Below are positions 1,637 through 36,709 of a DNA stretch of 42,812 bases, one piece after another. Position numbers and translations under genes: made by a program. Each line of letters starts with the position of its first letter. The first letter of the stretch is position 1. Source of the DNA: a virus (lineage: Duplodnaviria; Heunggongvirae; Uroviricota; Caudoviricetes); IMG/VR virus record IMGVR_UViG_2872192773_000007; one strand, given 5' to 3'. Below the pieces are notes generated by a model that had not been told where the DNA came from, searched no databases, and was given only the letters and a program-made list of their open reading frames with translations.

Positions 1637-2163
1637 TATTAGCTCCTTCTGATGCCATTCTATTTCAGGAAGGAGTGTCCGTTAAACTCAGGCTACCTCA
1701 CTTATTCTAAGCAACCGGGTAGCATCATACGGGGCAATTATGGCCGCATTACCATACATGCAACTGTACATAGCTGATTACCTGGCTGACACCATGCATT
1801 TGTCAGCAGAGGAGCACGGCGCGTATTTGTTGCTGATGTTCAATTACTGGCAAACAGGAAAGCCAATACCCAAAAACAGGTTGGCAAAAATTGCCCGTCT
1901 GACTAACGAGCGATGGGTTGATGTTGAACCATCCTTGCGGGAGTTTTTTTGTGATAACGGCGACGAATGGATGCATCTTCGGATTGAGGAAGATCTGGCA
2001 TCTGTCAGAGAAAAATTAACCAAAAAATCAGCCGCAGGAAAAGCATCTGTTCAGGCCAGAAGAAGCAGAAAGGAAGCAGATGTTCAAACAAAACAAGAGA
2101 GAAATTTAACAGGTGTTCAAACAGATGTTGGAGTGGTGTTCGAACATGATGCTGGATTTGCCC

Positions 2164-3069
2164 CTATATTTCCAGACATCTGTTATCACTTAACCCATTA
2201 CAAGCCCGCTGCCGCAGATATTCCCGTGGCGAGCGATAACCCAGCGCACTATGCGGATGCCATTCGTTATAATGCTCGAACGCCTCTGCAAGGTTCTTTG
2301 CTGCCGTTAACCCGTCTGGTTTGGGCATGATACTGATGTAGTCACGCTTTATCGTTTTCACGAAGCTCTCTGCTATTCCGTTACTCTCCGGACTCCGCAC
2401 CGCCGTGTTCTTCGGTTCAAGTCCCAACATCCGGGCGAACTGGCGTGTTTCATTAGCCCGGTAGCATGAACCATTATCCGTCAGCCACTCCACTGGAGAC
2501 GACGGAAGATCGTTGCCGAAGCGGCGTTCCACTGCTCCCAGCATGACGTCCTGTACTGTTTCACTGTTGAAGCCGCCGGTAGTCACCGCCCAGTGCAGTG
2601 CCTCACGATCACAGCAGTCCAGCGCGAACGTGACACGCAGTCTCTCTCCGTTATCACAGCAGAACTCGAACCCGTCAGAGCACCATCGCTGATTGCTTTC
2701 TTTCACGGCCACTCTGCCTGTATGTGCCCGTTTCGATGGCGGTACAGCAGGTTTTCGCTCAAGCAACAGCGCATTCTGGCGCATGAGCCGGTAAACACGT
2801 TTGGCATTGATCGCAGGCATACCATCAAGTTCTGCCTGTCTGCGAAGCAGCGCCCATACCCGACGATAACCATACGTGGGCAGCTCTCCGATAACATGGT
2901 GTATACGGAGAAGCACATCCGTATCATCAGTGTGACGACTGCGGCGGCCATCCATCCAGTCATCGGTTCGTCTGAGAATGACGTGCAACTGCGCACGCGA
3001 CACCCGGAGACAACGGCTGACTAAGCTTACTCCCCATCCCCGGGCAATAAGGGCGCGTGCGCTATCCAC
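2164..3069 (-). CDS. insD: IS2 InsD transposase (OrfB)
   Basis: 301-aa [31 protein letters not shown]... with an rve-type core. Confidence 0.95.
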
Positions 3070-3392
3070 TTTTTTGCCCGTCCATATTCAACGGCTTCTT
3101 TGAGGAGTTCATTTTTCATCGTTTTCTTGCCGAGCAGGCGCTGGAGTTCTTTAATCTGCTTCATGGCGGCAGCAAGTTCAGAGGCAGGAACAACCTGTTC
3201 TCCGGCGGCCACAGCAGTAAGACTTCCTTCCTGGTATTGCTTACGCCAGAGAAATAACTGGCTGGCTGCTACACCATGTTGCCGGGCAACGAGGGAGACC
3301 GTCATCCCCGGTTCAAAGCTCTGCTGAACAATTGCGATCTTTTCCTGTGTGGTACGCCGTCTGCGTTTCTCCGGCCCTAAGACATCAATCAT
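3027..3392 (-). CDS. insC: IS2 InsC (OrfA)
   Basis: 121 aa counted from [26 protein letters not shown]. The ORF track extends 15 codons further upstream, to 3437. Confidence 0.9.
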
Positions 3393-4230
3393 CTGTTCTC
3401 CAATGACTAGTCTAAAAACTAGTATTAAGACTATCACTTAAATAAGTGATACTGGTTGTCTGGAGATTCAGGGGGCCAGTCTAGATGCCAACACAAAGGC
3501 AACTAATAAAGATACAGATAAAGATCTAAAAACAGATCTAACCCATCCCAAACCCTTCCCTTCCGGAAGGGAGTTTCGGGATTTTGTGGCTGGAGTGCTT
3601 GAGGGGAGATTATCTGGCGGTACTGCAGCGGAATTTTGTAATTCTGCGGTGGTTGCGTTGCAGGCTGCTGGCCTGGATGTCTGTCGTGAGTATCCGGTGC
3701 CAGAGCGTGGTGACGGTTGCGGAGGGCGGATTGATATCGTCGTGACTGACAGGAACGGTGTCCGGTGTGGGATCGAGCTTGACCGAAATTCTCCGCGACA
3801 GAAATCACTGCTCAAAATCGGTGCTGTTGAAACCGGGATATGTGTCTTGCGGCGCAGTGATATCGCAAGGCACACCGAGCAGGGAATTCTGGTTATCGGT
3901 GGGGCTGTTCGCCAGAAAAAATTTGACCCGTTGTCAGTTGATCTGCCCGACTGGTTGCCAGAAACACTCTGGCATGAGTGGGTCCAGTTCAGGCAGGCAT
4001 TGCGAAAACCGATTCGAACGGAGCTGGGCGCTAACGGGGCGATACGGGAACTGGAAAAATTCCGTCAGCAGGGTTTTACACCTGAGCAGGTGATTCGACA
4101 CAGCATCGCCAATGAATACCAGGGTCTGTTCGCGCCGAAAGGTGTTCGGCCTGAGACGTTGCTCCGACAGGTTAACACCGTCTCGTTGCCGGACAGTGCG
4201 ATCCCGCTAGGCTTCAGGGGGTAACAGACC

Positions 4231-4974
4231 ATGAAAAATATTGCGACAGGAGGCGTTCTGGAGCGTATCCGCAGACTGACCCCACCACATGTAACCGCCC
4301 CATTCAGAACGGTTGCGGAGTGGCGCGAGTGGCAACTTGCTGAAGGCCAGAAACGTTGCGAGGAGATCAACCGCCTGAATCGTCAGTTGCGGGTGGAAAA
4401 AATCCTCCGCTCCGGCATCCAGCCGTTGCACCGGAAGTGTTCGTTTGCGAATTACCGGGCGCAGAACGACGGTCAGCGACATGCACTGAGTCAGGCGAAA
4501 TCCATAGCTGACGAACTGATGACAGGCTGTACGAATTTTGTGTTCAGCGGTAAGCCCGGCACCGGAAAAAATCATCTTGCAGCCGCGATTGGCAACCGGC
4601 TGATGGCGAAGGGGCGTAGCGTGATTATCGTCACCGTGTCCGATGTCATGAGCGTGTTGCATGAGAGCTACGACAACGGCAAATCCGGTGAAAAATTTTT
4701 ACAGGAGCTTTGTGGTGTTGACCTGCTGGTCCTGGATGAAATTGGCATGCAGCGGGATACGAAAAACGAGCAGGTGGTACTGAACCAGATTGTTGATCGC
4801 CGGACGGCATCGTTACGCGGTGTGGGGATGCTGACAAATATTAACCATGCAGCGATGAATACACTTCTCGGCGAGCGGGTGATGGATCGCATGGTCATGA
4901 ACGGCGGGCGCTGGGTTAATTTTAACTGGGAGAGCTGGCGTCCGAATGTTAGCCATTCGAGGGTTGTTAAGTAG
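4231..4974 (+). CDS. ydaV: DnaC/IstB-like replicative helicase loader (Rac YdaV-like)
   Basis: 247 aa with Walker A GKPGTGKNHLAAAIG and Walker B LLVLDEIG. It sits immediately downstream of the ydaU-like gene, with an AGGGGG RBS. Confidence 0.9.
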   Translation: MKNIATGGVLERIRRLTPPHVTAPFRTVAEWREWQLAEGQKRCEEINRLNRQLRVEKILRSGIQPLHRKCSFANYRAQNDGQRHALSQAKSIADELMTGCTNFVFSGKPGTGKNHLAAAIGNRLMAKGRSVIIVTVSDVMSVLHESYDNGKSGEKFLQELCGVDLLVLDEIGMQRDTKNEQVVLNQIVDRRTASLRGVGMLTNINHAAMNTLLGERVMDRMVMNGGRWVNFNWESWRPNVSHSRVVK

Positions 4975-4988
4975 TTTCAGGAGGATTT

Positions 4989-5411
4989 ATGGCGAAACCT
5001 TTTACTCCCGAACAGCGGGAAGAACTGAAGACGCGAATTGTGGAACTCGTGCATCAGGACGGTCGGGTCACGATTCGGCAGTTGTCCGATGAAACAGGTA
5101 TCAGTCGTGCGTCTGTCGGTCGCTTATGCATAGAACTGGTCGCAAGTGGTGATGTATATAATTCTGGCTACGGCTTATTCCCGTCTGAACAGGCTCGCAA
5201 GGACTGGCAAAGCGCCCGCAAAAAACTCTCGAGAGTAAAGGTGAGGAAACCGGTTGTTGTTGATCCGGACCTTATCTGGTCATTACCTGACGGAGAAATA
5301 CGCCGCTACGACAGGCGCCTGAATATAATCTGTCGCGAGTGCCGGAAGAGCGAAGCTATGCAGCGTGTACTGGCTTTCTATCAGGGTAATTTTCAGGAGG
5401 CGATACTGTGA
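4989..5411 (+). CDS. Hypothetical phage protein with predicted winged-HTH
   Basis: 140-aa ORF starting 14 nt after ydaV, with RBS AGGAGG. It has an HTH-like segment, VTIRQLSDETGISRASVGRLCIELV. Confidence 0.6.
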   Translation: MAKPFTPEQREELKTRIVELVHQDGRVTIRQLSDETGISRASVGRLCIELVASGDVYNSGYGLFPSEQARKDWQSARKKLSRVKVRKPVVVDPDLIWSLPDGEIRRYDRRLNIICRECRKSEAMQRVLAFYQGNFQEAIL

Positions 5412-5468
5412 ATGAAATTAGCTATCAGGCTTCAATTACCGCTGGCATTCGCATCAAAGGAGAGGAGC

Positions 5469-5825
5469 ATGGAAATAAAACCAGAAGATGAGTTAAGCAA
5501 TATCGTTTTATTTCCGATAAAAGAGGATGACCCTCGTAATCAGGTTAATTTTCTTTATAAGCCATCGGAAAGACCATATTGCCATCACGCCTCTGTACGG
5601 GTTGACGAAAAAGAGCGTCAGGTCCGCTGTAAAATCTGCGGTGCGGTTGTGGAGCCGTTTGACTGGATGCTCTCTGTGGCAAAAAGAGAAACCAGACTGG
5701 CAGATGATGTAAGGCTATTGCGCCAGGAGGAACAGGAAAGGCGGAGAAATATAGAAAAGCTGATACAGATTGAGCGTAACGCGAAAGCGCGGATACGCAG
5801 GGCGACAAAATCCAGAACTGAATAA
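5469..5825 (+). CDS. Hypothetical phage protein (CxxC plus basic coiled-coil tail)
   Basis: The ORF is open from 5412. The internal ATG at 5469 is preceded by the strong RBS AAAGGAGAGGAG. Contains the motif CKICGAVVEPFDW. Confidence 0.55.
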   Translation: MEIKPEDELSNIVLFPIKEDDPRNQVNFLYKPSERPYCHHASVRVDEKERQVRCKICGAVVEPFDWMLSVAKRETRLADDVRLLRQEEQERRRNIEKLIQIERNAKARIRRATKSRTE

Positions 5826-5917
5826 TTAAATTTAGCACTGTTAAAAATTTAATCCTTAACCGGAGGGATTTCTGCACCCTCAAATCATCAGGAGACCGCC
5901 CGAAAGGGCGGTAATGA

Positions 5918-6136
5918 ATGGTTACATTATTTAGAAAAAAATATCCGCGAAAGAGTAGAACAACAGAATTCCTGTTTCTCATTCTGTTTATCGTGTTGAT
6001 GACACCGATATCCCCGCAAATTTTTGTCTGGATAATCGGAAAAATAATTGAGCCAGTTATTGAATTGTATAACGACGTGGTATGGGCGTCATTCAACACA
6101 CTGCACAATAAAATTAATCCGTATAAGGAAAGCTGA
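5918..6136 (+). CDS. Hypothetical small membrane protein (one TM helix)
   Basis: 72-aa ORF with the hydrophobic stretch FLFLILFIVLMTPISPQIFVWIIG. It is visibly AT-rich and its stop lies 1 nt before the HNH start. The RBS is weak. Confidence 0.35.
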   Translation: MVTLFRKKYPRKSRTTEFLFLILFIVLMTPISPQIFVWIIGKIIEPVIELYNDVVWASFNTLHNKINPYKES

Positions 6137-6137
6137 T

Positions 6138-6503
6138 ATGGCACTGACGAAAAAACAACGTGCAGAACTGCGCATGAAGTTCGGTGGTCGCTGCGCTTAT
6201 TGCGGCTGCGAACTTGGCGAAAAGTGGCATGCAGACCATGTAAAACCGGTCATTCGTTTTGATGGAAATATGCTTCACCAGGAACGTGACGATATATCCA
6301 ACATGGTACCAGAATGCCACCCATGCAATCTGCACAAGCATTGCAGTAGCCTGGAAGATTATCGACGAATTATCAGTGATGGTCGTCGTGAATTCCTTGC
6401 GTCCGGGAAAGGCAAAGCGCTGGTTCGTATGGGATTGGTTGAAATGAAATCTGACCCGGTTGTGTTCTGGTTTGAAAAATATCAAGAAGGGGCTACGGCA
6501 TGA
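6138..6503 (+). CDS. HNH endonuclease
   Basis: 121 aa from ATG 6138 (RBS AAGGAAAG). The motifs CAYCG ... HADHVKP ... CHPCNLHK fit the HNH/zinc-finger nuclease family. Confidence 0.8.
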   Translation: MALTKKQRAELRMKFGGRCAYCGCELGEKWHADHVKPVIRFDGNMLHQERDDISNMVPECHPCNLHKHCSSLEDYRRIISDGRREFLASGKGKALVRMGLVEMKSDPVVFWFEKYQEGATA

Positions 6504-7165
6504 CTACTATTACCAAAGAGCGACTGCAATGGCTGGCTAACATTTCTGGCCGCGATGATATTGACGATATAGACGGCGGTGAAATTCGTGAACTGGCGCT
6601 TATCGCTCTGGCATCACTGGAAGCAGAGCCTGTAGCGGAATGCATTGTTGAAGATGGGGGCATGTGTATTGACGGGTTCGGTGAGTATGTGGGTCACTCG
6701 CTGCCTGATGGAATGCATGAGCTTTATGCTGCCCCGCGAATGCGACAACCTGATGGATGGAAAGCCGTAGCTGTAGCGTGGAAGGTGACGTTTACTCAAG
6801 TTGACCAGGAATCTAATACGTTCACTGCTATATATTTTTACAAAGCGGAAGTTGAGCGTTGGGTACGACTGCATAAAGCATGTGATTTTCGGGCAGATAT
6901 AACACCGCTTTACGCAGCGCCGGCAGTGCCGGTTGCAGTAAACGACGACATGGCTTACGCATTCCATCACGCACTGTCAGATTCATCGCTTGGCTCTGAT
7001 GAAATCGAAGAAATTAAAACCGGTTTGCGTGCTGCCTTTGCCAACGTCACTATCCAACCAGAGCCGATAGTGCCGGATGAAATCGGGCCAAACGATAGTA
7101 ATACGTTTGATTATGTTGATGGCTGGAACGCCTGCCGCGCTGCCATGCTTAAGGGAGATAAATAA
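6500..7165 (+). CDS. Hypothetical acidic phage protein
   Basis: 221-aa ORF whose start overlaps the HNH stop (ATGA). It lies in the same operon-like run of nin-region genes. Confidence 0.6.
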   Translation: MTTITKERLQWLANISGRDDIDDIDGGEIRELALIALASLEAEPVAECIVEDGGMCIDGFGEYVGHSLPDGMHELYAAPRMRQPDGWKAVAVAWKVTFTQVDQESNTFTAIYFYKAEVERWVRLHKACDFRADITPLYAAPAVPVAVNDDMAYAFHHALSDSSLGSDEIEEIKTGLRAAFANVTIQPEPIVPDEIGPNDSNTFDYVDGWNACRAAMLKGDK

Positions 7166-7530
7166 TGATTAATCGAACCAAACTGGAGCACATTCTCGAA
7201 TATGCCAGGCAGCAGAAATGTATTGGGCAACTTTGTAAAATTCCACCAGGAGATATGGTTGAAATCGTGGAAATGGCCATGCGTAAGGCTGGCAACTCTC
7301 CGGTAACTCTGGCTGGCTGGATAAGCTGTAGTGATGCAGTTCCTGCTGAATATTGCGATGTGATTCTTCTCGATGATCTCGGGAATGTATTCCCCGGTTC
7401 CTGGGATAAGGTTTTTTGCCCCACTCGTGGCGGGAATAAGATGGCTTTTGTGGACAAAGACGGCGTTGAAGTAGAGAGCTCAACTCACTGGATGCCGCTA
7501 CCGGAACCACCGCAGGAGGTGAATCAATGA
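7165..7530 (+). CDS. DUF551-type phage protein
   Basis: 121 aa with the C-terminal motif HWMPLPEPP typical of DUF551. Its start overlaps the previous stop. Confidence 0.7.
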   Translation: MINRTKLEHILEYARQQKCIGQLCKIPPGDMVEIVEMAMRKAGNSPVTLAGWISCSDAVPAEYCDVILLDDLGNVFPGSWDKVFCPTRGGNKMAFVDKDGVEVESSTHWMPLPEPPQEVNQ

Positions 7531-7610
7531 CCTGGCCTGAGGCATTCACCACGGTAGGAATTGCGATGGCGGTGGCGCTGGTGGTGTATTCGATTTGCCG
7601 TTGGGGTTAA
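7527..7610 (+). CDS. Small hydrophobic peptide (27 aa)
   Basis: ATGA overlap with the DUF551 stop. It translates to MTWPEAFTTVGIAMAVALVVYSICRWG and is followed directly by a terminator. Confidence 0.4.
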   Translation: MTWPEAFTTVGIAMAVALVVYSICRWG

Positions 7611-7615
7611 CAAAC

Positions 7616-7646
7616 AAAAACCCCGGATTGATGGTCCGGGGTTTTT
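7616..7646 (+). terminator. Rho-independent terminator
   Basis: Stem AAAAACCCCGGA / TCCGGGGTTTTT with a 7-nt loop and a T-run. Confidence 0.8.
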
Positions 7647-7867
7647 GAAGGAAACAAAACAGAAACAGCAATTGCCGTTACCTGTTGTTACCATGGCAAG
7701 TAAACGTATCTCAGGCGAGCGCATTGCGCCGTTCTGACGCAGATAAATTAGCCTGGATAGAAGGTGCTGGCAATAAAAAATAGCGTTTTCTTATCGGTAT
7801 CGGTAAGATTGCTGCGGGTGCTTGAGGCTGTCTGCCTCGGGCATGCCACTGTAAGGCAGACAGAGAA

Positions 7868-7936
7868 AAGCCCCAGTTAACATTACGCGTCCTGCAAGAC
7901 GCTTAACATTAATCTGAGGCCCAATCTATGTCTCAC
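7868..7936 (-). ncRNA. sok: Sok-like antisense RNA of the hok module (approximate ends)
   Basis: A minus-strand promoter TTGCCT (7966-7971), 17-nt spacer, TAACCT (7943-7948) points into the mok start region. The antisense transcript would end at a hairpin followed by GGGGCUUUUCU. This is the same architecture as R1 hok/sok as I recall it. Confidence 0.5.
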
Positions 7937-8140
7937 AAATGTAGGTTAGCCTCTTACGTGCCGAAAGGCAAGGAGAAGCAGGCTATGAAGCAGCAAAAGG
8001 CGATGTTAATCGCCCTGATCGTCATCTGTTTAACCGTCATAGTGACGGCACTGGTAACGAGGAAAGACCTCTGCGAGGTACGAATCCGAACCGGCCAGAC
8101 GGAGGTCGCTGTCTTCACAGCTTACGAACCTGAGGAGTAA
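7928..8140 (+). CDS. mok: Mok (modulator of killing) reading frame
   Basis: 70-aa ORF that starts 19 codons upstream of hok and is in frame with it, as in chromosomal mokC/hokC. Confidence 0.6.
   Translation: MSHKCRLASYVPKGKEKQAMKQQKAMLIALIVICLTVIVTALVTRKDLCEVRIRTGQTEVAVFTAYEPEE
7985..8140 (+). CDS. hok: Hok/Gef-family membrane toxin (type I TA)
   Basis: 51 aa: MKQQKAMLIALIVICLTVIVTALVTRKDLCEVRIRTGQTEVAVFTAYEPEE, the Hok/Gef signature. The mRNA 5' GCGGGTGCTTGAGG (7814-7827) is complementary to the 3' CCTCAACGCACCCGC (8190-8204), which is a fold-back (tac/fbi) pairing. Confidence 0.9.
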   Translation: MKQQKAMLIALIVICLTVIVTALVTRKDLCEVRIRTGQTEVAVFTAYEPEE

Positions 8141-8207
8141 GAGACCAGGCGGGGGAGAAATCCCTCGCCACCTCTCATGTGTCAGGCATCCTCAACGCAC
8201 CCGCACT

Positions 8208-8230
8208 AAACCCGCTTCGGCGGGTTTTTT
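8208..8230 (+). terminator. Rho-independent terminator of hok mRNA
   Basis: AAACCCGC-TTCG-GCGGGTTTTTT. Confidence 0.85.
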
Positions 8231-8376
8231 GTTGCGTGCTGAATACGCAGGGTGAAAAATAACCATATATTTGATTATATACACAACAAAAAATAAAAGT
8301 CATTGTACTTGCACATTAAACAATCAAATATACGGCGTGAAATAAATATTTATCAGATTAATATTTTTGTCTCTAT

Positions 8377-8628
8377 GTGGATATAACCGTTTGTACTTAT
8401 AAACCTGGGGGCATCGTGGAAAAAATAAAGAAACTATTTAGTAGCAAATACGCAGTCATACGTCGTGATGACCTGTCAGTTATAGTCGAAATGGATTACT
8501 TCCCTGAAACCCCAAAATCAATAATGTATCGTAATGGTCGAAAGGCAATTTTTTTACCGATGAGGGTAAGTGACATTATGGGAAATGATAAACTGCTGGA
8601 TGAATTGCGAGTCAGAGCATCCTGTTAG
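8377..8628 (+). CDS. Hypothetical AT-rich moron-like ORF
   Basis: 83-aa ORF with a GTG start (an alternative GTG lies at VEKIKK). It sits in a markedly AT-rich stretch. No motif recognised. Confidence 0.3.
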   Translation: MDITVCTYKPGGIVEKIKKLFSSKYAVIRRDDLSVIVEMDYFPETPKSIMYRNGRKAIFLPMRVSDIMGNDKLLDELRVRASC

Positions 8629-8645
8629 TAGGTAATGACTCCAAC

Positions 8646-9476: not shown

Positions 9477-10076
9477 ATGGCGCATATACAACTGGTCAAA
9501 CAAACCTCTTCCGGATTACTTCTCCCGGCGACGCCGGAGAGTTGCGATTTTTTGCATCAAATCAAAATAGGTGAGTGGATACACGCAGACTTTAAGCGTG
9601 TGCGTAACTACGCATTCCACAAGCGTTTTTTCAAACTCCTGCAACTGGGATTTGATTACTGGACTCCGGTCGGTGGGGCGATCACGCCTCGCGAACGAAA
9701 ACTGGTATCAGGCTTCGTTGATTACCTGTGCGAATCAGTAGGTCGGGAACACACTCCAGCCCTGAGTGATGCCGCAGAGCAATACCTTAATACAGTTGCG
9801 ACATGCAGAACCCGGGATACGGCATTGCTAAAGTCGTTTGACGCTTTCCGCGAGTGGGTAACCATTCAGGCCGGATTTTACACCGAGCATATTTATCCTG
9901 ATGGTAGTCGTGGGCGCAGGGCAAAATCTATCGCATTTGCGAACATGGACGAAACCGAGTTTCAGCAGGTTTATAAATCTGTACTGAATGTGCTGTGGAA
10001 CTGGATCCTGTTCCGTAAATTTTCCTCTCCGGAGGAAGTCGAAAATGTGGCCGCGCAGTTACTGGAGTTTGCGTAA
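9477..10076 (+). CDS. DUF1367-type lambdoid nin-region protein
   Basis: 199-aa ORF with RBS GGAGA. Its position directly upstream of the ybcO-like gene and Q, together with the sequence, fits the YdfU/DUF1367 family (from memory). Confidence 0.6.
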   Translation: MAHIQLVKQTSSGLLLPATPESCDFLHQIKIGEWIHADFKRVRNYAFHKRFFKLLQLGFDYWTPVGGAITPRERKLVSGFVDYLCESVGREHTPALSDAAEQYLNTVATCRTRDTALLKSFDAFREWVTIQAGFYTEHIYPDGSRGRRAKSIAFANMDETEFQQVYKSVLNVLWNWILFRKFSSPEEVENVAAQLLEFA

Positions 10077-10366
10077 TGGTGGATTTACGTAAAGCGGCGC
10101 GGGGGCAGATGTGCACCGTCAGAATTCCTGGCTACTGCAATCACAATCCCGAAACTTCTGTGCTGGCGCATTACAGGCTGGCGGGGACGTGCGGAACAGC
10201 GACAAAACCACACGATATGCAGGCAGCGATTGCCTGTAGCTCATGCCACGATTTAATCGACGGGCGGGTAAAAACCAGCGATTACACCAAAGAAGAATTA
10301 CGCCTGATGCATGCAGAAGGTGTTTTTCGCACACAAGAAATCTGGAGAAAGGAAGGTTATTTATGA
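10076..10366 (+). CDS. YbcO-like protein (DUF1364, putative nuclease)
   Basis: 96 aa: MVDLRKAARGQMCTVRIPGYCNHNPETSVLAHYRLAG.CGT.TKP. This closely parallels DLP12 YbcO as I recall it. Confidence 0.75.
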   Translation: MVDLRKAARGQMCTVRIPGYCNHNPETSVLAHYRLAGTCGTATKPHDMQAAIACSSCHDLIDGRVKTSDYTKEELRLMHAEGVFRTQEIWRKEGYL

Positions 10367-10917
10367 TTTACCCAACAAATACAGGCAAAAGCGGGGAACA
10401 CCTTCGTCTCACCACGCTGGAAAGTGTCTGGATTCAGGGAAAACTGCGCATGTGGGGGCGCTGGTCGTATATTGGCGGCGGTAAGACGGGAAATATGTTT
10501 AACCAGTTGCTGGCATCCAAAAAATTGACGAAAACAGCCGTCAATGAAGCCCTGCGCAGGATGAAAAAAGCGGGAATAGAGAAACCTGAGCTGGAAGCGT
10601 TTTTGCGAGAGATGATCAATGGCAAGCAAAAGACCTGGCTGGCGCATTGTACTGATGCAGAGGCGTTATGTATTGATAGAGTCATAAGTGAGGTGCTGGC
10701 AGAGCATCCTGGATTGATTAGTGTCCTCCGGCAACGGTATGAAGGGCGGGGGATGACTAAGCGTAAAATGGCTGAATTGCTGAATGACGCACACCCTGAG
10801 TGGTGTTTCCGGACGTGCTGCAGTCGGGTAGATGTATGGCTAAATCTTGCTGAATATATGCTCTATCTACCGATGCGTGATGCATTCTCTTCCGGGGATC
10901 TAAAAACCGTTTGTTGA
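10363..10917 (+). CDS. Late-gene antiterminator Q-like protein (DUF1133 type)
   Basis: 184 aa from ATG 10363, with an ATGA overlap with the previous gene. It contains the motif KLRMWGRWS and is followed by a promoter plus short-transcript terminator, the classic Q/PR'/tR' layout. Confidence 0.7.
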   Translation: MIYPTNTGKSGEHLRLTTLESVWIQGKLRMWGRWSYIGGGKTGNMFNQLLASKKLTKTAVNEALRRMKKAGIEKPELEAFLREMINGKQKTWLAHCTDAEALCIDRVISEVLAEHPGLISVLRQRYEGRGMTKRKMAELLNDAHPEWCFRTCCSRVDVWLNLAEYMLYLPMRDAFSSGDLKTVC

Positions 10918-12461: not shown

Positions 12462-13107
12462 AAAAAGAACAAATGGTAGTGTCCGCTATTGCCAGTACAC
12501 CTCACAGATTCCTGTTATTACCACCGAACTTTTGGCGCAGCTTTACGGCACTGAGCCGGTGCGTATTCGCCAGAATCATCATGAGAACAAAGTACGCTTC
12601 GTTGAAGGGAAACACTTTTTCAAAGTTGTTGGTAATGACCTTAAAGAATTGCGGGTCGCTTTAAACTACTCACAAAATCCAGTTTCACCCAAAGCCCGCT
12701 CCCTCATCCTCTGGACAGAACGAGGCGCAGCACGCCACGGCAAAATGCTCGAAACCGATCAGGCGTGGGATGTGTTCGAAAAACTGGAAGACTGCTATTT
12801 CAGTCAAAGGGATCCGTCAACGCCAGTTTCATGCCAGAAAAGTTACGACACGCGAGTTCTCTGTTATCAGAGAGGCGGTGTCACTGTTTCCACAATTCAG
12901 TTACGGGATGATGATATTGTTATTTCCCTTGAGTCATGGCTGGAACTGGCGAGAGCCAATGGTTGGTTTGTTGTTCGCAGAGATAAACTGGTGGAAAGGT
13001 TGATGCAGCTTTAAAAAAGTTCTTGCATTTTTGCACATAAACTGCTTCAATTCCGGTAAGCTTCGCAAAGCTGTATCGCGAGGCGAATAGCAGACATGGA
13101 CACTTGA

Positions 13108-25580: not shown

Positions 25581-25635
25581 GGTAATGCTGCCAACTTACT
25601 GATTTAGTGTATGATGGTGATTTTAAGGTGCTTGC

Positions 25636-25911
25636 GTGGCTTCCATTTCCATCAGATGTCCTTCCTGCTCCGCTACTGAAGGCGTGGTGCGTAACGGCAA
25701 AAGCACTGCCGGACATCAGCGCTATCTCTGCTCTCATTGCCGTAAAACATGGCAACTACAGTTCACTTACACCGCCTCTCAGCCCGGTACGCACCAGAAA
25801 ATCATTGATATGGCCATGAATGGCGTCGGATGTCGCGCCAGTGCACGCATTATGGGCGTTGGCCTCAACACGGTTTTACGTCACTTAAAAAACTCAGGCC
25901 GCAGTCGGTAA
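25636..25911 (+). CDS. insA: IS1 InsA
   Basis: 91-aa ORF. Confidence 0.9.
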
Positions 25912-26333
25912 CCTCGCGCATACAACCGGGCAGTGATGTGATTGTCTGCGCTGAAATGGACGAACATTGGGGCTACGTCGGTGCTAAATCACGTCAGCGC
26001 TGGCTGTTTTACGCGTATGACAGGATACGGAGGACGGTTGTGGCGCACGTCTTCGGTGAACGCACTCTGGCCACACTGGAGCGTCTTCTGAGCCTGCTGT
26101 CGGCCTTTGAGGTCGTGGTATGGATGACGGATGGCTGGCCGCTGTATGAATCACGCCTGAAGGGAAAGCTGCACATTATCAGCAAGCGTTACACTCAGCG
26201 CATTGAGCGACATAATCTGAATCTGAGACAACATCTGGCAAGGCTGGTACGGAAGTCACTGTCGTTCTCAAAATCGGTGGAGCTGCATGACAAGGTCATC
26301 GGGCATTATCTGAACATAAAACACTATCAGTAA
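25830..26333 (+). CDS. insB: IS1 InsB (variant: W and I substitutions relative to the other two copies)
   Basis: 167-aa ORF. It reads [20 protein letters not shown] where the other copies read [20 protein letters not shown]. Confidence 0.9.
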
Positions 26334-26348
26334 GTTGGAGTCATTACC

Positions 26349-26520
26349 CACCGGAACTGATTTGATGAACTATCAACGCTCTTAAATTCCCGGCCTTTTT
26401 AATGTTACTGTTAGTAATCTCCCAGCCTTTCAATGTTTCCCGACATCGTTTTCCTCGAAACATGAACCAGATGCGAATGTATTTACCTCGAATCTCGACA
26501 CCTGTTGGTAATTTAGACAT
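26349..26520 (-). pseudogene. Lambda-type integrase, N-terminal arm-binding part
   Basis: ATG at 26520, then MSKLPTGVEIRGKYIRIWFMFRGKRCRETLKGWEITNSNIKKAGNLRALIVHQISSG. Confidence 0.8.
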
Positions 26521-26521
26521 A

Positions 26522-26694
26522 TCATGAGTCTTTGATAAACTGATTTATCTTCGGATAGTTGTACCAGATAATCCCTCGCTTACTGTCTGGCTTCCCTAAA
26601 GGAGATACTCGTTTGAAGTGGAAGCCTTCCACCCAACAGTTCTGGCGGTATGCTTCAATTTGTCTGGCACCCAGACCAGTGCGAAGCATCAGGC
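26522..26694 (-). pseudogene. Excisionase-like protein (DUF1233 type), probably 5'-truncated by IS629
   Basis: ...[47 protein letters not shown]. The stop lies 1 nt before the int ATG, and the IS629 end lies 5 nt upstream of the first Met. Confidence 0.6.
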
Positions 26695-29861: not shown

Positions 29862-29925
29862 TGAGGTAGCCTGAGTTTAACGGACACTCCTTCCTGAAAT
29901 AGAATGGCATCAGAAGGAGCTAATA

Positions 29926-30228
29926 ATGAGCAGAAAAACCCAACGTTACTCTAAAGAGTTCAAAGCCGAAGCTGTCAGAACGGTTCTTGAAAATCAACTT
30001 TCGATCAGTGAAGGCGCTTCCCGATTATCTCTTCCTGAAGGCACTTTAGGACAATGGGTTACCGCCGCCAGAAAAGGGCTCGGTACTCCTGGTTCCCGCA
30101 CGGTGGCTGAACTGGAATCTGAAATTCTGCAACTGCGTAAGGCGTTAAATGAAGCTCGCCTTGAGCGAGATATATTAAAAAAAGCAACAGCGTATTTTGC
30201 ACAGGAGTCGCTGAAAAATACGCGTTAA
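29926..30228 (+). CDS. IS600 OrfA
   Basis: 100-aa ORF. Confidence 0.95.
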
Positions 30229-30263
30229 TCGAACAATGGCGACAACAATTTCCCATTGAAGCG

Positions 30264-31082
30264 ATGTGTCAGGTATTTGGTGTATCCAGGAGCGGTTATT
30301 ACAACTGGGTACAGCATGAACCCTCAGACAGAAAACAAAGTGATGAGCGGCTAAAACTGGAGATTAAGGTGGCACATATCCGCACTCGCGAAACATATGG
30401 AACCCGGCGGCTCCAGACGGAGCTGGCAGAGAATGGCATCATCGTTGGTCGTGACCGACTGGCACGTCTTCGTAAGGAGCTGAGGCTACGCTGTAAGCAG
30501 AAACGCAAGTTCAGAGCGACTACGAACCCGAACCACAATCTGCCAGTTGCGCCAAATCTGCTGAACCAGACGTTCGCTCCTACAGCACCAAATCAGGTCT
30601 GGGTGGCGGACCTGACGTATGTTGCCACACAGGAGGGATGGTTGTACCTCGCTGGCATCAAAGATGTTTATACGTGTGAAATTGTCGGCTACGCCATGGG
30701 AGAGCGCATGACAAAAGAGCTGACAGGTAAAGCCCTGTTTATGGCGCTCAGGAGCCAGCGCCCACCTGCCGGGCTAATCCACCACTCTGATCGAGGTTCA
30801 CAGTACTGCGCATACGATTACCGGGTCATACAGGAGCAGTCTGGTCTGAAAACATCAATGTCGCGTAAAGGTAACTGTTACGACAACGCTCCGATGGAAA
30901 GCTTCTGGGGAACGCTGAAAAATGAGAGCCTGAGCCACTATCGTTTTAATAACCGGGATGAAGCCACCTCAGTAATACGGGAATACATTGAGATTTTCTA
31001 CAATCGTCAGCGTCGTCACTCTCGTCTGGGGAATATCTCCCCGGCAGCCTTCAGGGAAAAATATCATCAGATGGCTGCTTAA
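30264..31082 (+). CDS. IS600 OrfB
   Basis: 272-aa ORF, with one substitution (EATSVIRE) relative to the other copies. Confidence 0.95.
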   Translation: MCQVFGVSRSGYYNWVQHEPSDRKQSDERLKLEIKVAHIRTRETYGTRRLQTELAENGIIVGRDRLARLRKELRLRCKQKRKFRATTNPNHNLPVAPNLLNQTFAPTAPNQVWVADLTYVATQEGWLYLAGIKDVYTCEIVGYAMGERMTKELTGKALFMALRSQRPPAGLIHHSDRGSQYCAYDYRVIQEQSGLKTSMSRKGNCYDNAPMESFWGTLKNESLSHYRFNNRDEATSVIREYIEIFYNRQRRHSRLGNISPAAFREKYHQMAA

Positions 31083-31125
31083 AAAAAGAACAAATGGTAG
31101 TGTCCGCTATTGCCAGTACACCTCA

Positions 31126-31137
31126 CAGGCTACCTCA
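31126..31137 (-). mobile_element. 12-bp remnant of an inverted IS600 left end
   Basis: CAGGCTACCTCA is the reverse complement of the IS600 left terminus TGAGGTAGCCTG. It abuts the right end of the full copy. Confidence 0.7.
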
Positions 31138-32554
31138 AGGCAGCCAGTAATTTGTCTGCATCGACAGGATTTTTGGGCGGAATGTTTTTCCGGGCTTCAT
31201 GGAGTTCTGCCCGTAGTTCCTGATATTTCTCATCAACAGAATTTACCTGTGACTGAGCATCCAGCGGCTGCGTGTTCTGATGATGTTCAGTTGCATCCGG
31301 TTCCATTGTTTCAGCCGTTGCCTGTTCATCTGCCATTGCGCCAGATGGCTGCGTTTTTTCTTCATCATCCTGTTTTCCTTCTTCTGTTACACGTTGCGGC
31401 ATCGGGGCAGAGGAGCGACCGCAGGCAATATCCACGATTTCCGGATCAGGGTTGGCATGATCGGTTTCAGTCAGTACCTTGTTCAGATATTCAGTGACGT
31501 GAGCGGGGATGACCTCGATACCAATCGGTGCTTCTTTCACTGACGCAACCACGATGGCGCGGGAATAATCCATCCCGCCAGGCATGGTGATGAATTTGTC
31601 GCGGAAAACAGAAAAGGGCGGTTTATTTTCAGCGATAATTTCCTCGACACGTTTAGCGTGTGCCGGATGAAGGTTATAAATGTCCACGTCCATTGAACGA
31701 GCCAGTACGCCAGTGGCTACGTCGCGCGCCAGTGACGTCAGATCGTGAACGAAACCTTCGCCGCGATCGGTGAGGTTCCCGCCGCCAGCATTAGCGCCGG
31801 AAGCCGTGCGCGTGATGCGTGAAACACGATTTCCTTTCATCCACTCTTTTGTCAGCAGACCGCGATCGGTGTAGTCTGCGTCCATGTATGCTTCGAAAAA
31901 AGCAGTCATCAGCCCCAGGCTTGAATTGCCTGGATTAGGGAAAACTCTGTCAGTATCACGCACCAGTTTGTGGAGATCGCGAATTTCCAGCGGATCGAGC
32001 AGGCTGGTTTTGTGGGAAACAGCCAGGGCAGTAACAGCTGGTAGTTCTTCATCCCGAGCAATGTGTAATGCCTGGAGTTCGTCGCGTGAAACGTGCGTTA
32101 CTGGTTTTTCGCTGCCGTGTTGCGCAAGCCAGCGAATGGGCAGTTCCTGACCGGAAACTGGCAGGAGCATGTTCTCCTCAATTTCTGTCATGTCTTCGCC
32201 GTTGACGTTGGTATTGTCAGTGCTGGCCGGTTTGTCCTGAACAGAGGGAGAAGATGCGATAAATACCATTGTGATGCCATCTTCCCCGCCTTTTTCGTAA
32301 CGGTTGCAGAATTCCGTATCAAATACGCCTTCTGGCGGGAGGTCATCAACAACGGGCAAATTGACGCGAACAGGTTTTTTAAAGTCATCTTCATCGTAGC
32401 CTGCATCGTCAATCGCAACAGCACCACGGGAGATGGCAATGGATAATTTTTTCGCTTCAGCCCAGTAAAAACCGCCTTTAATACCGAGACGTTTTCTTAC
32501 TTTGTCATTTTTTGCTTCGTAATACAGTGGGTAAACTTGTTTATCGGTGTTCAT
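31130..32554 (-). pseudogene. recE: RecE (exonuclease VIII) N-terminal half, C-terminal nuclease domain lost
   Basis: 474 aa. The stretch [45 protein letters not shown]...[12 protein letters not shown] matches Rac RecE residues of about 100-475 as I recall them. The stop codon is supplied by the IS600 remnant. Confidence 0.85.
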
Positions 32555-32653
32555 TGTTTTTTAACCTCAACTCAGATTAAAATTACTGCGAGTGATGAAT
32601 AAATGTCCCAGGTTCTTCATTCAGGCCTGCACAGTGTGCAGGCTTTCTTTTTT

Positions 32654-32929
32654 TCAGATTTCACCTTTTAATTTCATTGCAATCAGAGTTGCCAGAAATT
32701 CGGCTTTTTTTTCTGCGGGCAGATTCTTTCCTATGTGCACCAGACACATTTTTTTTACACCATCGTTAAGTGTTTTAACGTTGCCTGATGGACCGTCGAT
32801 ATCAACCACAGTGAATGGGGTTTCTTTATTTTCTGTCTTAATCACGTAGCCAATACGCTTTCCTTCCAGATTAACCTCGTGAACAATGTCATCAGTAGTT
32901 ACAACAGTGGCTTCATAACTGGTAATCAT
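32654..32929 (-). CDS. racC: Rac prophage protein RacC
   Basis: 91 aa from MITSYEATVVTTDDIVHEVNLEGKRIGYVIKTENKETPFTVVDIDGPSGNVKTL. Confidence 0.85.
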   Translation of the reverse strand: MITSYEATVVTTDDIVHEVNLEGKRIGYVIKTENKETPFTVVDIDGPSGNVKTLNDGVKKMCLVHIGKNLPAEKKAEFLATLIAMKLKGEI

Positions 32930-33003
32930 GTTTTTCTCCTTAATTAAGGTTGAGCGAATCCCTGCCATTGCTGGCATAAATTCAGTTTCGGATAGTCAGT
33001 TAA

Positions 33004-33174
33004 TTAAAGTTCGTGTGCCATCTGGTCTTTTTCGGCACAGATTTCACTACAATATTTTTTCATTTCCGTCGTTGGTATAACTCCACGCATGAAATGAAGT
33101 GGTCTTGTAATGATTTTGCTTTCTTCAATTTCTTTATTGCAAAGGTGATAAGCACATTTTATTTTCTTAGTCAT
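33004..33174 (-). CDS. ydaE: Rac prophage zinc-binding protein YdaE
   Basis: 56 aa, too short for the ORF track: [56 protein letters not shown]. Its ATG overlaps the kilR stop by 1 nt. Confidence 0.75.
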   Translation of the reverse strand: MTKKIKCAYHLCNKEIEESKIITRPLHFMRGVIPTTEMKKYCSEICAEKDQMAHEL

Positions 33175-33395
33175 TACCATGACTCCGCCTTTACAGGTAA
33201 ACCATCACGACCGAGGAAGACTTTAATCATGCAGTCAGAAATGCATGTTTTTGTAGTCAGGCTACGAATATAAAGTTTTCGCTTTTTAATATTGTTTGCC
33301 GAGGCGATATATGTCCGACCTTCATGAAGAACATAATCGCCAGGAGTCACACACTGACGTGGTATTTCATCAGTTCCGAAGTGATGAGCAATCAT
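33174..33395 (-). CDS. kilR: KilR, FtsZ-inhibiting killing protein of Rac
   Basis: 73 aa: [51 protein letters not shown]... Confidence 0.85.
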
Positions 33396-34700: not shown

Positions 34701-34791
34701 CTGTTCTCCAATGACTAGTCTAAAAACTAGTATTAAGACTATCACTTAAATAAGTGATACTGGTTGTCTGGAGATTCAGGGGGCCAGTCTA

Positions 34792-35333
34792 GCAGCTGCT
34801 CTACGGTCATATTTTTAATTGCGCTCCGGTTTACAAGAGCCCACCCCTGTTTTTCCAGATAAAACTGGAAAGTATCCAGGGTACAGACCAGTGCACCGTC
34901 AGGAACAGTTTCGGTGAATCTGATATTGCCGTGTTCGTCGAAGTGCACAACCAGAGTGCGACCGTTACCCGGAATCATCTTGTCAGCGGACGGGGTATTA
35001 TTCTGGTGCAGTTCTGCCTCCATGCGGTCGAACATCAGCGATGTAGGCCTCTTTGAATGCAGCGGCTTTTTTCCCAGTGAAGCCCATCACCAGGAAAACG
35101 AAGCCGTTTTTGGTGATTTGGTACATTGGACGTTTTTCGCCTTTGGTGTCGGTGTAGGTGACGTCCTCAAAATTGAGGGCGTTAAATTCAGGTGAGCATT
35201 CAGTATTTGCGATGGCACGTAACACATTGTCGTGTCGTTTGTGGAAGAACTCTGCAACCGCAACAGACGTAGTGACAGCGCGACCGTTTTCGATGGTTAC
35301 GTCAGGGTGAGAAAGGGCAGGGATAGTAGCCAT
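34792..35333 (-). pseudogene. Rha-family phage regulatory protein, frameshifted and with IS2 near the 3' end
   Basis: ATG 35333 (RBS GAGGA), then MATIPALSHPDVTIENGRAVTTSVAVAEFFHKRHDNVLRAIAN...KKAAAFKEAYIA. The frame slips near 35035 into MFDRMEAELHQ...MTVEQLL. The last 3 codons (SIK*) lie beyond the IS2, at 33442-33455. Confidence 0.7.
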
Positions 35334-35362
35334 GATGGCATCCTCGAGTGATAAGTTAATTA

Positions 35363-35471
35363 ACTCACCACCGAGGTTTTCCACGACCATAAGGGTGGTG
35401 AGACGTACAGGGGTGGAAATACCGGTCACTCGAGAACCCGGCCAGTCTTGCGACTGCCCTGCACATCCCAC
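35363..35471 (-). ncRNA. Candidate structured leader/antisense-type RNA upstream of rha (c4-like architecture?)
   Basis: On the minus strand, a closing stem GGTGGGA...TCCACCC encloses two hairpins, CAGTC-GCAA-GACTG (GNRA loop) and CCGG-GTTCTCGAGTGA-CCGG. A further hairpin, CTCACCACC...GGTGGTGAG, follows. No plausible coding potential. Confidence 0.3.
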
Positions 35472-35500
35472 CATAATTTGAATGGAGCTGTGCATTACGC

Positions 35501-35524
35501 ATAAAAAAACCGCTTCAGCGCGGC
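35501..35524 (-). terminator. Rho-independent terminator (minus strand)
   Basis: AGCCGCG-CTGA-AGCGGTTTTTTT, read on the minus strand. Confidence 0.7.
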
Positions 35525-36106
35525 TATGCGCTCGAGTAACGTTCGGGTTTCCACGCCCGGCCCCCGTTTTATGAGGTGCAGATGCACTATAATTCCACCC
35601 GTTCTGGTTTTCAATAGCTACATTCAACATTTTCTCTTACCTTTCATCACCGAAGTGAACTTTGTTGATGCGGTGCCTGGTGCCTCCAGGTGACGTTAAC
35701 CAGTTAACAATTAACGCCGGATACAGGGAAACCCATAACCACCCGATACGTGGGAACTAATCGCTTTTTAACTGTTCCGCGTGCGCTCAGCCGCATTCAC
35801 CGCATCACAAAATTCACTTTAAAAAGGGCGGACATCAGCCAGCAATGAAACTGATGCCGCCAAAGGTACCAATCAACATGGAGTGTTGTGGCGTGGTTGT
35901 CACTTAAGCGTATGGTCAACCTGACAACCCGGTGTCCTCAACGGGGAAGGAATAACTCCGCCATACTTACCGCCGCGTCATTTCGCGTTGTGTGCCTGCT
36001 TTTAACTACGTCAGGCGAGGTGGTTCCTGTTATTCCCCAACAACAAGAAATTTGTATAATCTGAATACCCCAACAATAAGAAGAGTGAGCAAGTGATGTA
36101 TTAGCG

Positions 36107-36553
36107 ATGTCAGCTCTCAAAGAGACTGCATCAATGTTAAAATTATTCAATGAAGCAAAAACTCAGGCTGAGGTTGATCGCGCTGTGTCTGAAATAAACT
36201 CTAAGTTGTCAAGCATTCAGCTTGAATATTTGTCTCTCATTGATGAGCTGACAATCTCTAAAAGCAATGAGGCTGCGCTCAAAGCAAAACTCACGGAGAT
36301 AGAAAAGTTTAAGTTCCAAAGTGAAGACTGCGAACCTCGCTAATTGATTACTGGAACGATTGTGTATGCCAGACAGTGCAATACTAGCTCTGGCAAGATT
36401 ACCATGTATTTTTGTCCAGAATGTTTTGCGAAGAGAGCAATATCTATATTGCAACCTTTCCCTATCGAGGAAGGCGATAAATATACGAAAACTCAATGCC
36501 CCTCCTGTAAAAATGAGTATCTCATGGACTACAATTTCAATAATGATTTTTGA
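36107..36553 (+). pseudogene. Hypothetical coiled-coil + zinc-ribbon protein split by an in-frame TAA
   Basis: ORFs 36107..36343 and 36344..36553 are in the same frame and separated only by the TAA at 36341-36343. The C-terminal part has CPECF...CPSCK. The region is AT-rich. Confidence 0.5.
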
Positions 36554-36709
36554 GTCAAGGTATTCAGATTTTTAAAGAACATGCCGGATACTCACCCGTG
36601 TCCGGCGCACGCACTCCACCTCACCCGTGGAGAACTCCTTAATTACCAACCTTGGCTTCGTTGGTTAGCCATTAACGCTGGTATGTAATCATTCTGGCAA
36701 TGCTTAATT

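Follow-up and report, generated by a model that had tools for sequence, protein, structure and literature searches.

The sit and ipaH islands of Shigella flexneri as a probable decayed co-integrate of two lambdoid phages with an uncut Rac-type attP

The Caudoviricetes record IMGVR_UViG_2872192773_000007 of IMG/VR (42,812 nucleotides; this whole stretch is called the window below) is a chromosomal block of Shigella flexneri in which the transporter operon sitABCD and an ipaH gene lie among decayed phage genes. We consider that the block is probably a decayed co-integrate of two lambdoid phages, in which R, a sit-carrying phage of the Rac/ttcA attachment type, lies in circular permutation within Y, an ipaH-carrying prophage at yebY/pphA, the two having been joined by homologous recombination. 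The identity of an attP between sit and int, the colinearity with reference phages, the insertion sequence (IS) status of the junctions, both flanks, the conservation in S. flexneri and the gene order of strain M90T could be read directly. From these we infer recombination as the joining event, its route and the position of its crossover, for which the left arm is the favoured site.

Positions 1-483 encode a truncated PgrR' of 160 amino acids that exactly matches proteins named from S. flexneri and is also carried by many S. flexneri chromosomes, and positions 13554-34468 match S. flexneri CP097828.1 at 99.99% identity. The arrangement recurs in at least ten independent complete S. flexneri chromosomes. 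The genes follow the order ydaU-ydaV-nin-Q-tRNAs...tail fibre-sitDCBA-attP-int-xis-gam-recE-kilR-rha, as in the vegetative map of a lambdoid phage. Our reference for this order is a complete, normally arranged prophage of about 49 kb at ttcA/uspF in E. coli FDAARGOS_944. From ttcA, it reads intR xisR DUF1187 AAA gam recE...rha...cI cro ydaT ydaU ydaV in its left part and nin Q tRNAs lysis terminase portal capsid tail J lom tail-fibre DUF4376 sitDCBA in its right part, ending at uspF. Positions 1701-13533 are colinear with this prophage from ydaU through the four tRNAs (96-99.6% identity), and positions 24840-35863 with its attL-int-xis-AAA-gam-recE-rha segment. Between these, positions 19391-24882 are 99.4% identical to the tail fibre-DUF4376-sitDCBA-attR arm of enteroinvasive E. 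coli (EIEC) VL7S7, up to 400 bp past sitA. The FDAARGOS_944 and VL7S7 alignments overlap at 24840-24882. The window does not hold a complete single phage genome with immunity, lysis, head and tail functions: compared with loci L001 and L016, it has no cI, cro, ydaT, holin, terminase, portal, capsid or tail shaft genes.

The place where sit meets int carries the main evidence. A four-way alignment of attB, attL, attR and attP identifies positions 24750-24940 as a base-perfect attP of the Rac/ttcA type, attB having been defined from two E. coli representatives with an empty site (uspF-ttcA-dbpA) returned by a TtcA search. The 26-bp core, TTGTTCAGGTCGTATTGTTCTTTCTT, occupies 24840-24865. The 90 bp to its left, which in normal prophages come after sitA, equal the phage arm of attR, and to its right lies the phage side of attL, the arm that precedes intR, including the phage-borne ttcA start codon. 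The sit-int junction is an uncut P-O-P' site and no chance resemblance. Self-BLAST of the window and the att alignments revealed no IS between sitA and int, and the nearest IS to the core is an IS1 that lies 715 bp away, inside int. Both int and xis directly adjoin attP, with the tail fibres and cargo on its other side, and both genes are inactivated. With int and xis dead, this attP is a fossil; as it is uncut, entry of R by its own integrase reaction is excluded. The permuted gene order with an intact attP, proposed in a preliminary description of this DNA, is therefore real, as the att alignments and the FDAARGOS_944 colinearity establish. The adjacency of int and the tail fibre/sit arm, also pointed out there, is the order found in the isolated phage ev207.

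The arms of this attP are rich in one motif. RGGGCAAA occurs 15 times in the window (3.8 expected), with seven of the copies within 24687-24932. Four direct copies lie in the P arm (24687-24735) and one inverted copy stands by the core (24829-24836), while two direct copies lie in the P' arm (24914-24932). This layout is as expected for arm-type integrase sites, and the motifs are candidate IntR binding sites. As delimited by the att alignments, the motif count and TRF, the attP region extends over 24687..24940, with no strand assigned. A 'repeat array' that had been placed between sit and int is an 11-bp unit, AAGGGGCAAAA, repeated 3.3 times at 24704-24739 (TRF) within the P arm. Alignments to other S. 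flexneri loci break at 24695-24719, suggesting that the number of AAGGGGCAAAA repeats varies among strains. We further note that the E. coli genomes with an empty attB (L064 ~9826-10000; P0166/P0170) encode a third TtcA N-terminus, MSQNQQIT, which combines residues of the native (MSQNQEIS) and phage-type (MQENQQIT) forms, and that their DNA is P'-like for 17 nt past the 26-bp core. This N-terminus may be the scar of a former Rac-type integration and excision.

Neither flank of the block is that of a prophage at ttcA. On the right, positions 37235-41059 match the tail fibre-DUF4376-ipaH3-pphA sequence of EIEC VL40 at 99.5%, and positions 42324-42812 match pphA-yebW at 98.8%. In VL40 a prophage occupies the yebY/pphA site, and that sequence forms its right end; this prophage has its own integrase and excisionase, and its DUF1187, AAA and Gam are identical to those of the ttcA-site phage. 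Past yebW, S. flexneri continues with yebV-rsmF-yebT-yebS-proQ in descending K-12 order. On the left, positions 1-436 carry pgrR in its ascending K-12 orientation, with ycjX-ycjF-tyrR-tpx...ycjY upstream; in K-12, pgrR lies about 25 kb before ttcA. Since the pgrR side ascends and the yebW side descends, the window lies at an inversion junction. The ipaH/pphA-yebW junction is the only native chromosomal junction of the block, in inverted chromosomal orientation, and everything between ydaU and yebW forms a single block whose orientation is the one native to the yebY/pphA site.

The gene order of S. flexneri M90T shows where the rest of this chromosomal segment lies. In the locus tags that the PMC4229854 supplement provides, tpx (1314) is followed by sitB/sitA (1347/1348), a yebS-like gene (1363) and cspC (1373). 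In these same entries of PMC4229854, the tags next follow K-12 order in a broadly descending sense, further local rearrangements aside, as far as azoR (1749), fnr (1779) and ynaJ (1781), and ascend again through a 'putative phage integrase' (1793), copD (1795), yobA (1796), ptrB (1800) and edd (1806). It follows from this order that the segment from pgrR to pphA is inverted and the pgrR-ttcA interval is not deleted, that the few tags from azoR to fnr appear to leave no space for a prophage as large as Rac, and that the inversion has its other end beside yebY, in a short, integrase-bearing prophage remnant. The composite is bounded by the junctions of its host prophage, the right one (ipaH/pphA) being read directly in the window and the left one deduced from the M90T locus-tag order. 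A published comparison likewise found no rac-like prophage in ttcA, and an ancestral TtcA N-terminus, in S. flexneri 301, 2457T, 8401 and 2002017 (Liu et al. 2015, PMC4632033). The representatives returned by our own TtcA search included no S. flexneri member.

Other look-ups concern the surroundings of the block. IpaH and both DUF4376 copies led only to the window's own context in S. flexneri, and KilR led to that context and to E. coli prophages at both att sites. A full-length PgrR query returned full-length homologues only, and a query with its C-terminal half returned a fragment of 145 amino acids (P0140) in a few short Logan contigs, e.g. L020 1-60 (ERR14063669). In the P0140 contigs an IS1 end stands at pgrR nt 442, followed by mppA-ynaI-ynaJ-uspE-fnr; the window has IS600 at nt 436. 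These contigs probably do not represent the general state of S. flexneri. A further protein, P0165, was represented by one metagenome contig.

R and Y share kilobases of near-identical sequence, which makes homologous recombination the obvious joining event. In the left arm they have the same WP accessions for DUF1187, AAA and Gam, KilR is identical in prophages at both att sites, and positions 37235-37946 are a 712-bp direct repeat of 20077-20788 (98.5% by self-BLAST) that covers the tail-fibre C-terminus and DUF4376. In the VL40 ipaH3 prophage, our proxy for Y, the ydfC-side region matches the segment 35981-36709 at 96-99.5% identity; the FDAARGOS_944 sit phage lacks this segment. Given that the ydaU-to-tRNA and tail fibre-to-sit parts match the sit phage and 35981-36709 matches Y, a crossover in the early left arm is indicated by these EIEC proxies.

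Under the co-integrate reading, R would have joined Y by recombination between such long near-identical segments, in the early left arm or in the tail fibre/DUF4376 region, and this could have happened by either of two routes. The first would start from a circular R, either newly infecting or released from ttcA by excision, which would enter the resident Y by a single crossover. The second would start with a terminus-spanning R x Y inversion, after which IntR and XisR would recombine the now-inverted attL and attR, restoring attB at ttcA-uspF and creating attP. The integrase acting on the chromosome would in this way flip about 0.5 Mb back, heal ttcA and move a whole phage genome into another prophage. 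We regard this second route as unlikely, and if true it would make a site-specific recombinase the driver of a large chromosomal inversion in the making of S. flexneri. Its first step is seen in EIEC VL7S7 (NZ_CM177009.1; L062, L003), which has two hybrid prophages: one runs from ttcA through intR..cI cro ydaT into Y-type replication genes and on to ipaH3 and pphA, and the other from yebY through int_Y..recE..IS1..tail fibre-sit to uspF. These hybrids indicate an inversion of about 0.5 Mb, spanning the terminus, between the two prophages. VL7S7 also has an IS911 that separates AAA from gam, roughly at the position of the second IS911 copy of the window and of some S. flexneri; this may reflect either a hot spot or a shared history.

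By either route, an IS600 inversion, with one end in pgrR and the other where ydaU starts, would afterwards have split the co-integrate, leaving the int_Y end at yebY and placing pgrR' beside ydaU. IS1, IS2, IS600, IS911, IS629-like and IS66-like elements would then have inserted, several of them with deletions. The genes for lysis, head and tail would have gone in this way, as would the stretch from immunity to tail in the right-hand phage; int would have lost 425 bp, xis its start, AAA/gam a part, and recE its C-terminus together with recT, while selection would have retained the cargo, sitABCD and ipaH.

Several points weigh against this account. The inversion and the empty ttcA, as we describe them, depend on the locus-tag order in a supplement and on one published TtcA comparison. 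Lambdoid mosaicism weakens the assignment of segments to R or Y from EIEC proxies, and the crossover could lie in the tail fibre/DUF4376 region. The two 712-bp repeats share two single-nucleotide polymorphisms (SNPs) that are absent from all four reference copies, and they differ from each other only in the last ~35 bp. These private SNPs suggest a later gene conversion between the repeats, which would blur their ancestry; the use of SNPs in the repeat to locate the crossover was dropped, the private SNPs being shared and the differences confined to the 3' end. The position of pgrR, some 25 kb from ttcA and oriented as a simple deletion from a ttcA-sited array would give, is a coincidence under the co-integrate, softened only by the tendency of inversions towards symmetry about the terminus. 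Finally, wherever a chromosomal attP junction of this type was inspected in E. coli, it belonged to a tandem array.

The last two points are what a tandem double lysogen at ttcA (attL-A-attP-B-attR) would lead one to expect, if IS deletions had removed the left arm of A with adjoining chromosome and the right part of B, as the preliminary description suggested. An internal attP is the hallmark of tandem integration and is present in the window, and the proposal was reasonable since internal-attP arrays do exist at ttcA in E. coli: of 5426 complete E. coli genomes, 38 have an attP-type junction at that site. In the H22 array a full sit prophage leads into attP, after which come 231 bp left over from int, a remnant of sitD and uspF, and the same remnant lies behind a cytolethal distending toxin (CDT) phage in APEC O1. 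(Matches in H20/H22 that were considered as the same sit-int junction in E. coli were rejected, as they consist of two non-colinear pieces.) The flanks of the window are nevertheless pgrR'::IS600 and ipaH/pphA-yebW instead of ttcA attL and attR/uspF. The deletion from pgrR to ydaU that the array needs would take mppA..fnr..ttcA with it, yet M90T keeps fnr and ynaJ near the phage integrase and copD, and TtcA is present in S. flexneri with its ancestral N-terminus and no rac-like prophage (PMC4632033). The array would also require an additional B x Y inversion and a means to strip attL from ttcA. With the wrong flanks, fnr and ynaJ retained and ttcA reported unoccupied, we do not uphold the tandem lysogen, which we judge decidedly improbable. 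A different arrangement of the same two phages deserves somewhat more weight, though it too is doubtful. Here the crossover lies in the tail fibre/DUF4376 region, the inserted sit circle is 20789-37946 only, and the half from ydaU to the tail fibre belongs to the resident ipaH prophage, so that the halves come from two phages and their order is no permutation of one genome. A Campbell-type insertion leaves direct repeats of the homology, of which 20077-20788 and 37235-37946 could be an example, and prophages with the yebY-type integrase commonly carry the ydaT-ydaU-ydaV-nin-Q backbone, so this backbone need not be that of R. Against it, the ydaU-to-tRNA and tail fibre-sit parts both match one sit prophage, that of FDAARGOS_944 (96-99.6%), and 35981-36709 matches the VL40 ipaH prophage and not the sit phage. 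The diagnostic 3' sites make the first repeat copy sit-type and the second ipaH-type, with no visible crossover, and the second copy stops on its left at an IS66 fragment rather than where homology runs out. Mosaicism and gene conversion between the repeats keep this variant in play, while the proxy comparisons argue against it.

Explanations that dispense with phage recombination fare worse. That IS-mediated transposition or inversion of half a prophage brought int beside the tail fibres and sit, also raised in the preliminary description, might be expected in a window of which about 36% is IS and which has eight IS-bounded junctions without target duplication. The sit-int junction itself, however, is IS-free and a base-perfect P-core-P', and the IS1 that lies 715 bp from it inside int removed 425 bp only locally; with so clean a junction, this origin of the adjacency is abandoned as very improbable. 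An assembly artefact, in which reads of an excised circular phage were mis-joined, is conceivable in that Rac-like prophages can excise. Yet int and xis are both broken here, and the same junction and the same IS1 lesion in int occur in at least ten independent complete S. flexneri chromosomes and in many drafts, which leaves next to no credibility for such an error.

The sit operon (sitDCBA, an iron/manganese ABC transporter; 21019..24468, minus strand) is 99.4% identical to the sit operon beside attR in E. coli. In normal E. coli prophages sit lies between the tail fibres and attR, and in isolated lambdoid phages such as ev207 it lies between the tail fibres and int. sitABCD was found on 70% of lambda-like phage isolates from infant-gut E. 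coli (Mathieu et al. 2020, PMC6969025), and in E. coli 042 it is located 'at the tail end' of a prophage (PMC2808357). The E. coli prophages, ev207 and the infant-gut isolates (PMC6969025) all agree with the earlier suggestion that sit is phage cargo beside attP, and that lambdoid phages carry sit is well established from earlier work. In S. boydii Sb227, where sit has the normal uspF junction, a tRNA/Q-like segment lies nearby. Other genomes present variants around sit. In the draft contig L039 (GCA_900484635.1, UDPV01000119.1; 5156-6037), the C-terminal 170 codons of ipaH are joined to the last 58 codons of the first DUF4376 copy, from which the contig continues into sitDCBA-attP-int'; such a junction is expected if the ~18-kb sit..ipaH segment has been duplicated in tandem or excised as a circle. 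In S. flexneri CP127081.1 (L026/L038), the segment with sit is turned round with respect to ipaH and an IS1 marks the junction, a strain-specific rearrangement. In CP182555.1 (L042) the segment with ORF6N, the tRNAs and the island described below is gone, apparently through recombination of two direct IS600 copies.

On the ipaH side, the tail-fibre C-terminus and the second DUF4376 copy begin at 37235 (plus strand) and ipaH lies at 38156-39871 (minus strand), both 99.5% identical to EIEC VL40. An identical IpaH of 571 amino acids occurs in L028 (GCA_900486255.1, UDVR01000062.1), with an intact lambda-like tail module (tape measure..J-lom-tail fibre-DUF4376) upstream, while EIEC VL40 and VL7S7 have a contractile-tail module upstream of ipaH instead. 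The ipaH cargo end is therefore common to phages with different tails. The chromosomal right flank (40610..42812) consists of pphA, split by an IS600, and yebW. The left flank is the 5' fragment of pgrR (ycjZ; 1..436, plus strand), which encodes a LysR N-terminus and is 99.3% identical to pgrR in 5218 E. coli genomes.

The ~36% IS share of the window comprises five IS600 (copies a to e: 437-1700, 11241-12504, 17162-18111, which is partial, 29862-31125 and 41060-42323), two IS2 (a, 2151-3484; b, 33459-34792), three IS1 (a, 8631-9398; b, 16393-17161; c, 25581-26348) and two IS911 (a, 13720-14970; b, 28361-29611). To these are added a 61-bp IS911 end (36710-36770), an IS3-family element with IS629-like ends (26695-28000) and a 464-bp fragment of an IS66-family tnpA (36771-37234). 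Simple insertions were called from target duplication at the IS flanks, which marks five copies: IS2a in ydaU (GATGC), IS1a (minus strand; 9 bp, ctgttagta), IS600b (plus strand; cag), IS2b (minus strand; GCAGC) and IS600e in pphA (gtt). The eight IS-bounded junctions without target duplication include four that lie within otherwise colinear sequence and mark local losses. IS1c has cost int its 425 bp, and the IS629-like element (minus strand; NCBIfam transpos_IS3 on three open reading frames, ORFs) about 350 bp, including DUF1187 and the start of xis. IS911b replaces 823 bp of AAA-gam. IS600d, with a 12-bp inverted IS600 end at 31126-31137 (together 29862..31137, plus strand), stands where the C-terminus of recE and recT are lost; the inverted terminus is a trace of a second IS600 formerly at the recE breakpoint.

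Three junctions are larger. IS600a (437..1700, minus strand, from self-BLAST) joins pgrR' to ydaU' and has the flanks tcc and ctt, with no 3-bp duplication. IS1b abuts the 3' 950 bp of IS600c (16393..18111, plus strand, from self-BLAST and the flanks), and this junction stands where the lysis, head and tail genes belong by comparison with L001 and L016. The IS911 end and the 5' part of the IS66-family tnpA (36710..37234, plus strand) mark an internal deletion between the immunity side and the tail-fibre C-terminus; the reading of 36771-37234 as a (divergent) tail fibre was rejected, the segment being this 5' tnpA fragment. The preliminary description correctly placed an IS600 against ydaU and an IS911 fragment, here the 61-bp end, at the other limit of the block. 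It took these limits to be one opening between the immunity and replication genes, and that does not stand, as two unrelated junctions coincide and there is no single cut: the ydaU end is the IS600 inversion breakpoint, and the immunity-side end is the internal deletion associated with IS911 and IS66.

Between these junctions the phage genes are preserved to different degrees. On the plus strand, ydaU (1701..4224; DUF1376 replication protein, PF07120) lacks its first 12 nt, is split by IS2 and is colinear with L001 11554-12741. It is followed by a ydaV-like gene for an IstB/DnaC ATPase (4231-4974) and, up to 8630, by DUF977, DUF4014, HNH-like, DUF551 and hok genes (annotation and Pfam), the region 4231..8630 being 98.4-98.8% identical to L001. 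The nin-region genes DUF1367 and YbcO/DUF1364 and the Q-like antiterminator DUF1133 (9477..10917; Pfam) are 96.3% identical to L001. An ORF6N protein gene and the phage tRNA cluster (12505..13533; 98.6% to L001) come next; ARAGORN identifies the tRNAs as CAT (Met here, Ile in RefSeq), Arg-TCT, Thr-TGT and Gly-TCC, and the same four stand before the holin in L001. Past the island, the block 18112..20818 (97-99% to VL7S7) contains a 122-amino-acid ORF and a tail-fibre assembly protein (18660-19031; Pfam Caudo_TAP), a gene for a tail-fibre N-terminal domain (19055-20244) that is frameshifted here, and the first DUF4376 copy (20195-20818); Caudo_TAP, and the Pfam domains phage_tail_N and DUF4376 of the latter two, are found in identical S. 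flexneri loci. On the minus strand, the inactivated intR (24941..26520) consists of its 3' 640 bp, IS1c and its 5' 172 bp (98.5% and 94.8% to L001 intR), and xisR (26522..26694; DUF1233 by Pfam) has its 5' end cut by the next IS, leaving 55 amino acids. Alignment to L001 identifies a 3' fragment of an AAA_24 ATPase gene (28001-28360) and a fragment of gam (29612-29861), both of which are intact in other S. flexneri strains. The N-terminal 474 codons of recE, a 91-amino-acid ORF in the position of racC (PRK09790), ydaE and kilR (31138..33395; Pfam Exonuc_VIII, YdaE and KilR) are followed by a 97-amino-acid ORF, rha (34998-35630; TIGR02681) and the immunity-side segment (34742..36709).

A further mobile element lies at the end of the tRNA cluster. 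The sequence 13534..16392 (plus strand), at the 3' end of the phage tRNA-Gly (13459-13533), is the remnant of an integrative island, recognised from a glyU-associated island of E. coli 2018-05-2CC; what follows the phage tRNA-Gly matches the island beside chromosomal glyU in E. coli. It consists of att-proximal sequence, integrase codons 1-24 (13646-13719), IS911a (13720-14970), the last 125 codons of the integrase (14971-15389) and AT-rich repeats (15695-16267; TRF). IS911a has no target duplication and about 1.2 kb of the integrase gene is lost. Most other S. flexneri genomes have at the same place an intact tyrosine integrase of 534 amino acids (DUF6538 and Phage_integrase). The stretch 14971-16392 had been considered an unrelated, IS-shuffled fragment, which was rejected in favour of the tRNA-Gly-integrated island. 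The island is a mobile element that uses the phage tRNA-Gly(TCC) as its attachment site, and is possibly satellite-like.

Among known systems, the packaged, complete phage ev207 comes close in gene order, with tail fibre-sitDCBA-attP-int-xis-...gam-exo/recombinase-kil and a sit operon 98.2% identical to that of the window. It has a different integrase and att (an icd fragment), whereas the window is chromosomal, lacks head, tail, lysis and immunity genes and has the Rac/ttcA attP. Rac of K-12 and the Rac-type sit prophages of FDAARGOS_944, strain 41 and S. boydii Sb227 have the same type of integrase and excisionase and the same 26-bp ttcA core as the window. They also share with it the left arm of gam, recE, ydaE, kilR and rha and the ydaU/ydaV module, and in the sit prophages sit lies by attR. 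They are integrated through attP, however, with int and sit at opposite ends and ttcA/uspF flanks, whereas the window has an uncut attP, no adjacent ttcA, and pgrR'::IS600 and ipaH/pphA as its flanks. The H22 and APEC O1 arrays resemble the window in their chromosomal P-core-P' followed by an int remnant, but keep attL at ttcA and attR at uspF, and their second element is an old, short remnant. In VL7S7 the same two phages have recombined across the terminus, and intR and the left arm are linked to the ipaH3/pphA junction as in the right part of the window. Unlike the window, VL7S7 has attL at ttcA and attR at uspF, inverted, and no attP, and its crossover lies between ydaT and the replication genes.

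The same region of S. flexneri has been described, in the passages of PMC7545054 that report Fisher et al. 2009, as the pathogenicity island (PAI) 'PAI sit', with sitABCD amid phage genes and many IS. Those passages (PMC7545054) present PAI sit as unstable and rearranged by homologous rather than site-specific recombination. As far as they extend, they do not mention the intact attP, the permuted order or the embedding in an ipaH prophage (PMC7545054). We found no statement of an intact Rac-type attP in the sit island or of its co-integration with the ipaH prophage. No new mechanism is involved, as prophage-prophage recombination, tandem arrays and IS erosion are all familiar.

If the favoured reading holds, the sit island and the adjacent ipaH island would be neither two independent islands nor a prophage at its own site. 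They would form one decayed co-integrate of two lambdoid phages, which would explain the layout of this virulence region in S. flexneri. Such a co-integrate would also account for an unoccupied ttcA in a genome that contains a Rac-type int, xis and attP. RecA-dependent loss of sit has been reported in S. flexneri, and the 712-bp direct repeats on either side of sit..rha offer it an obvious substrate; the window also supplies a clean, natural attP sequence of the Rac integrase together with its candidate arm-type sites.

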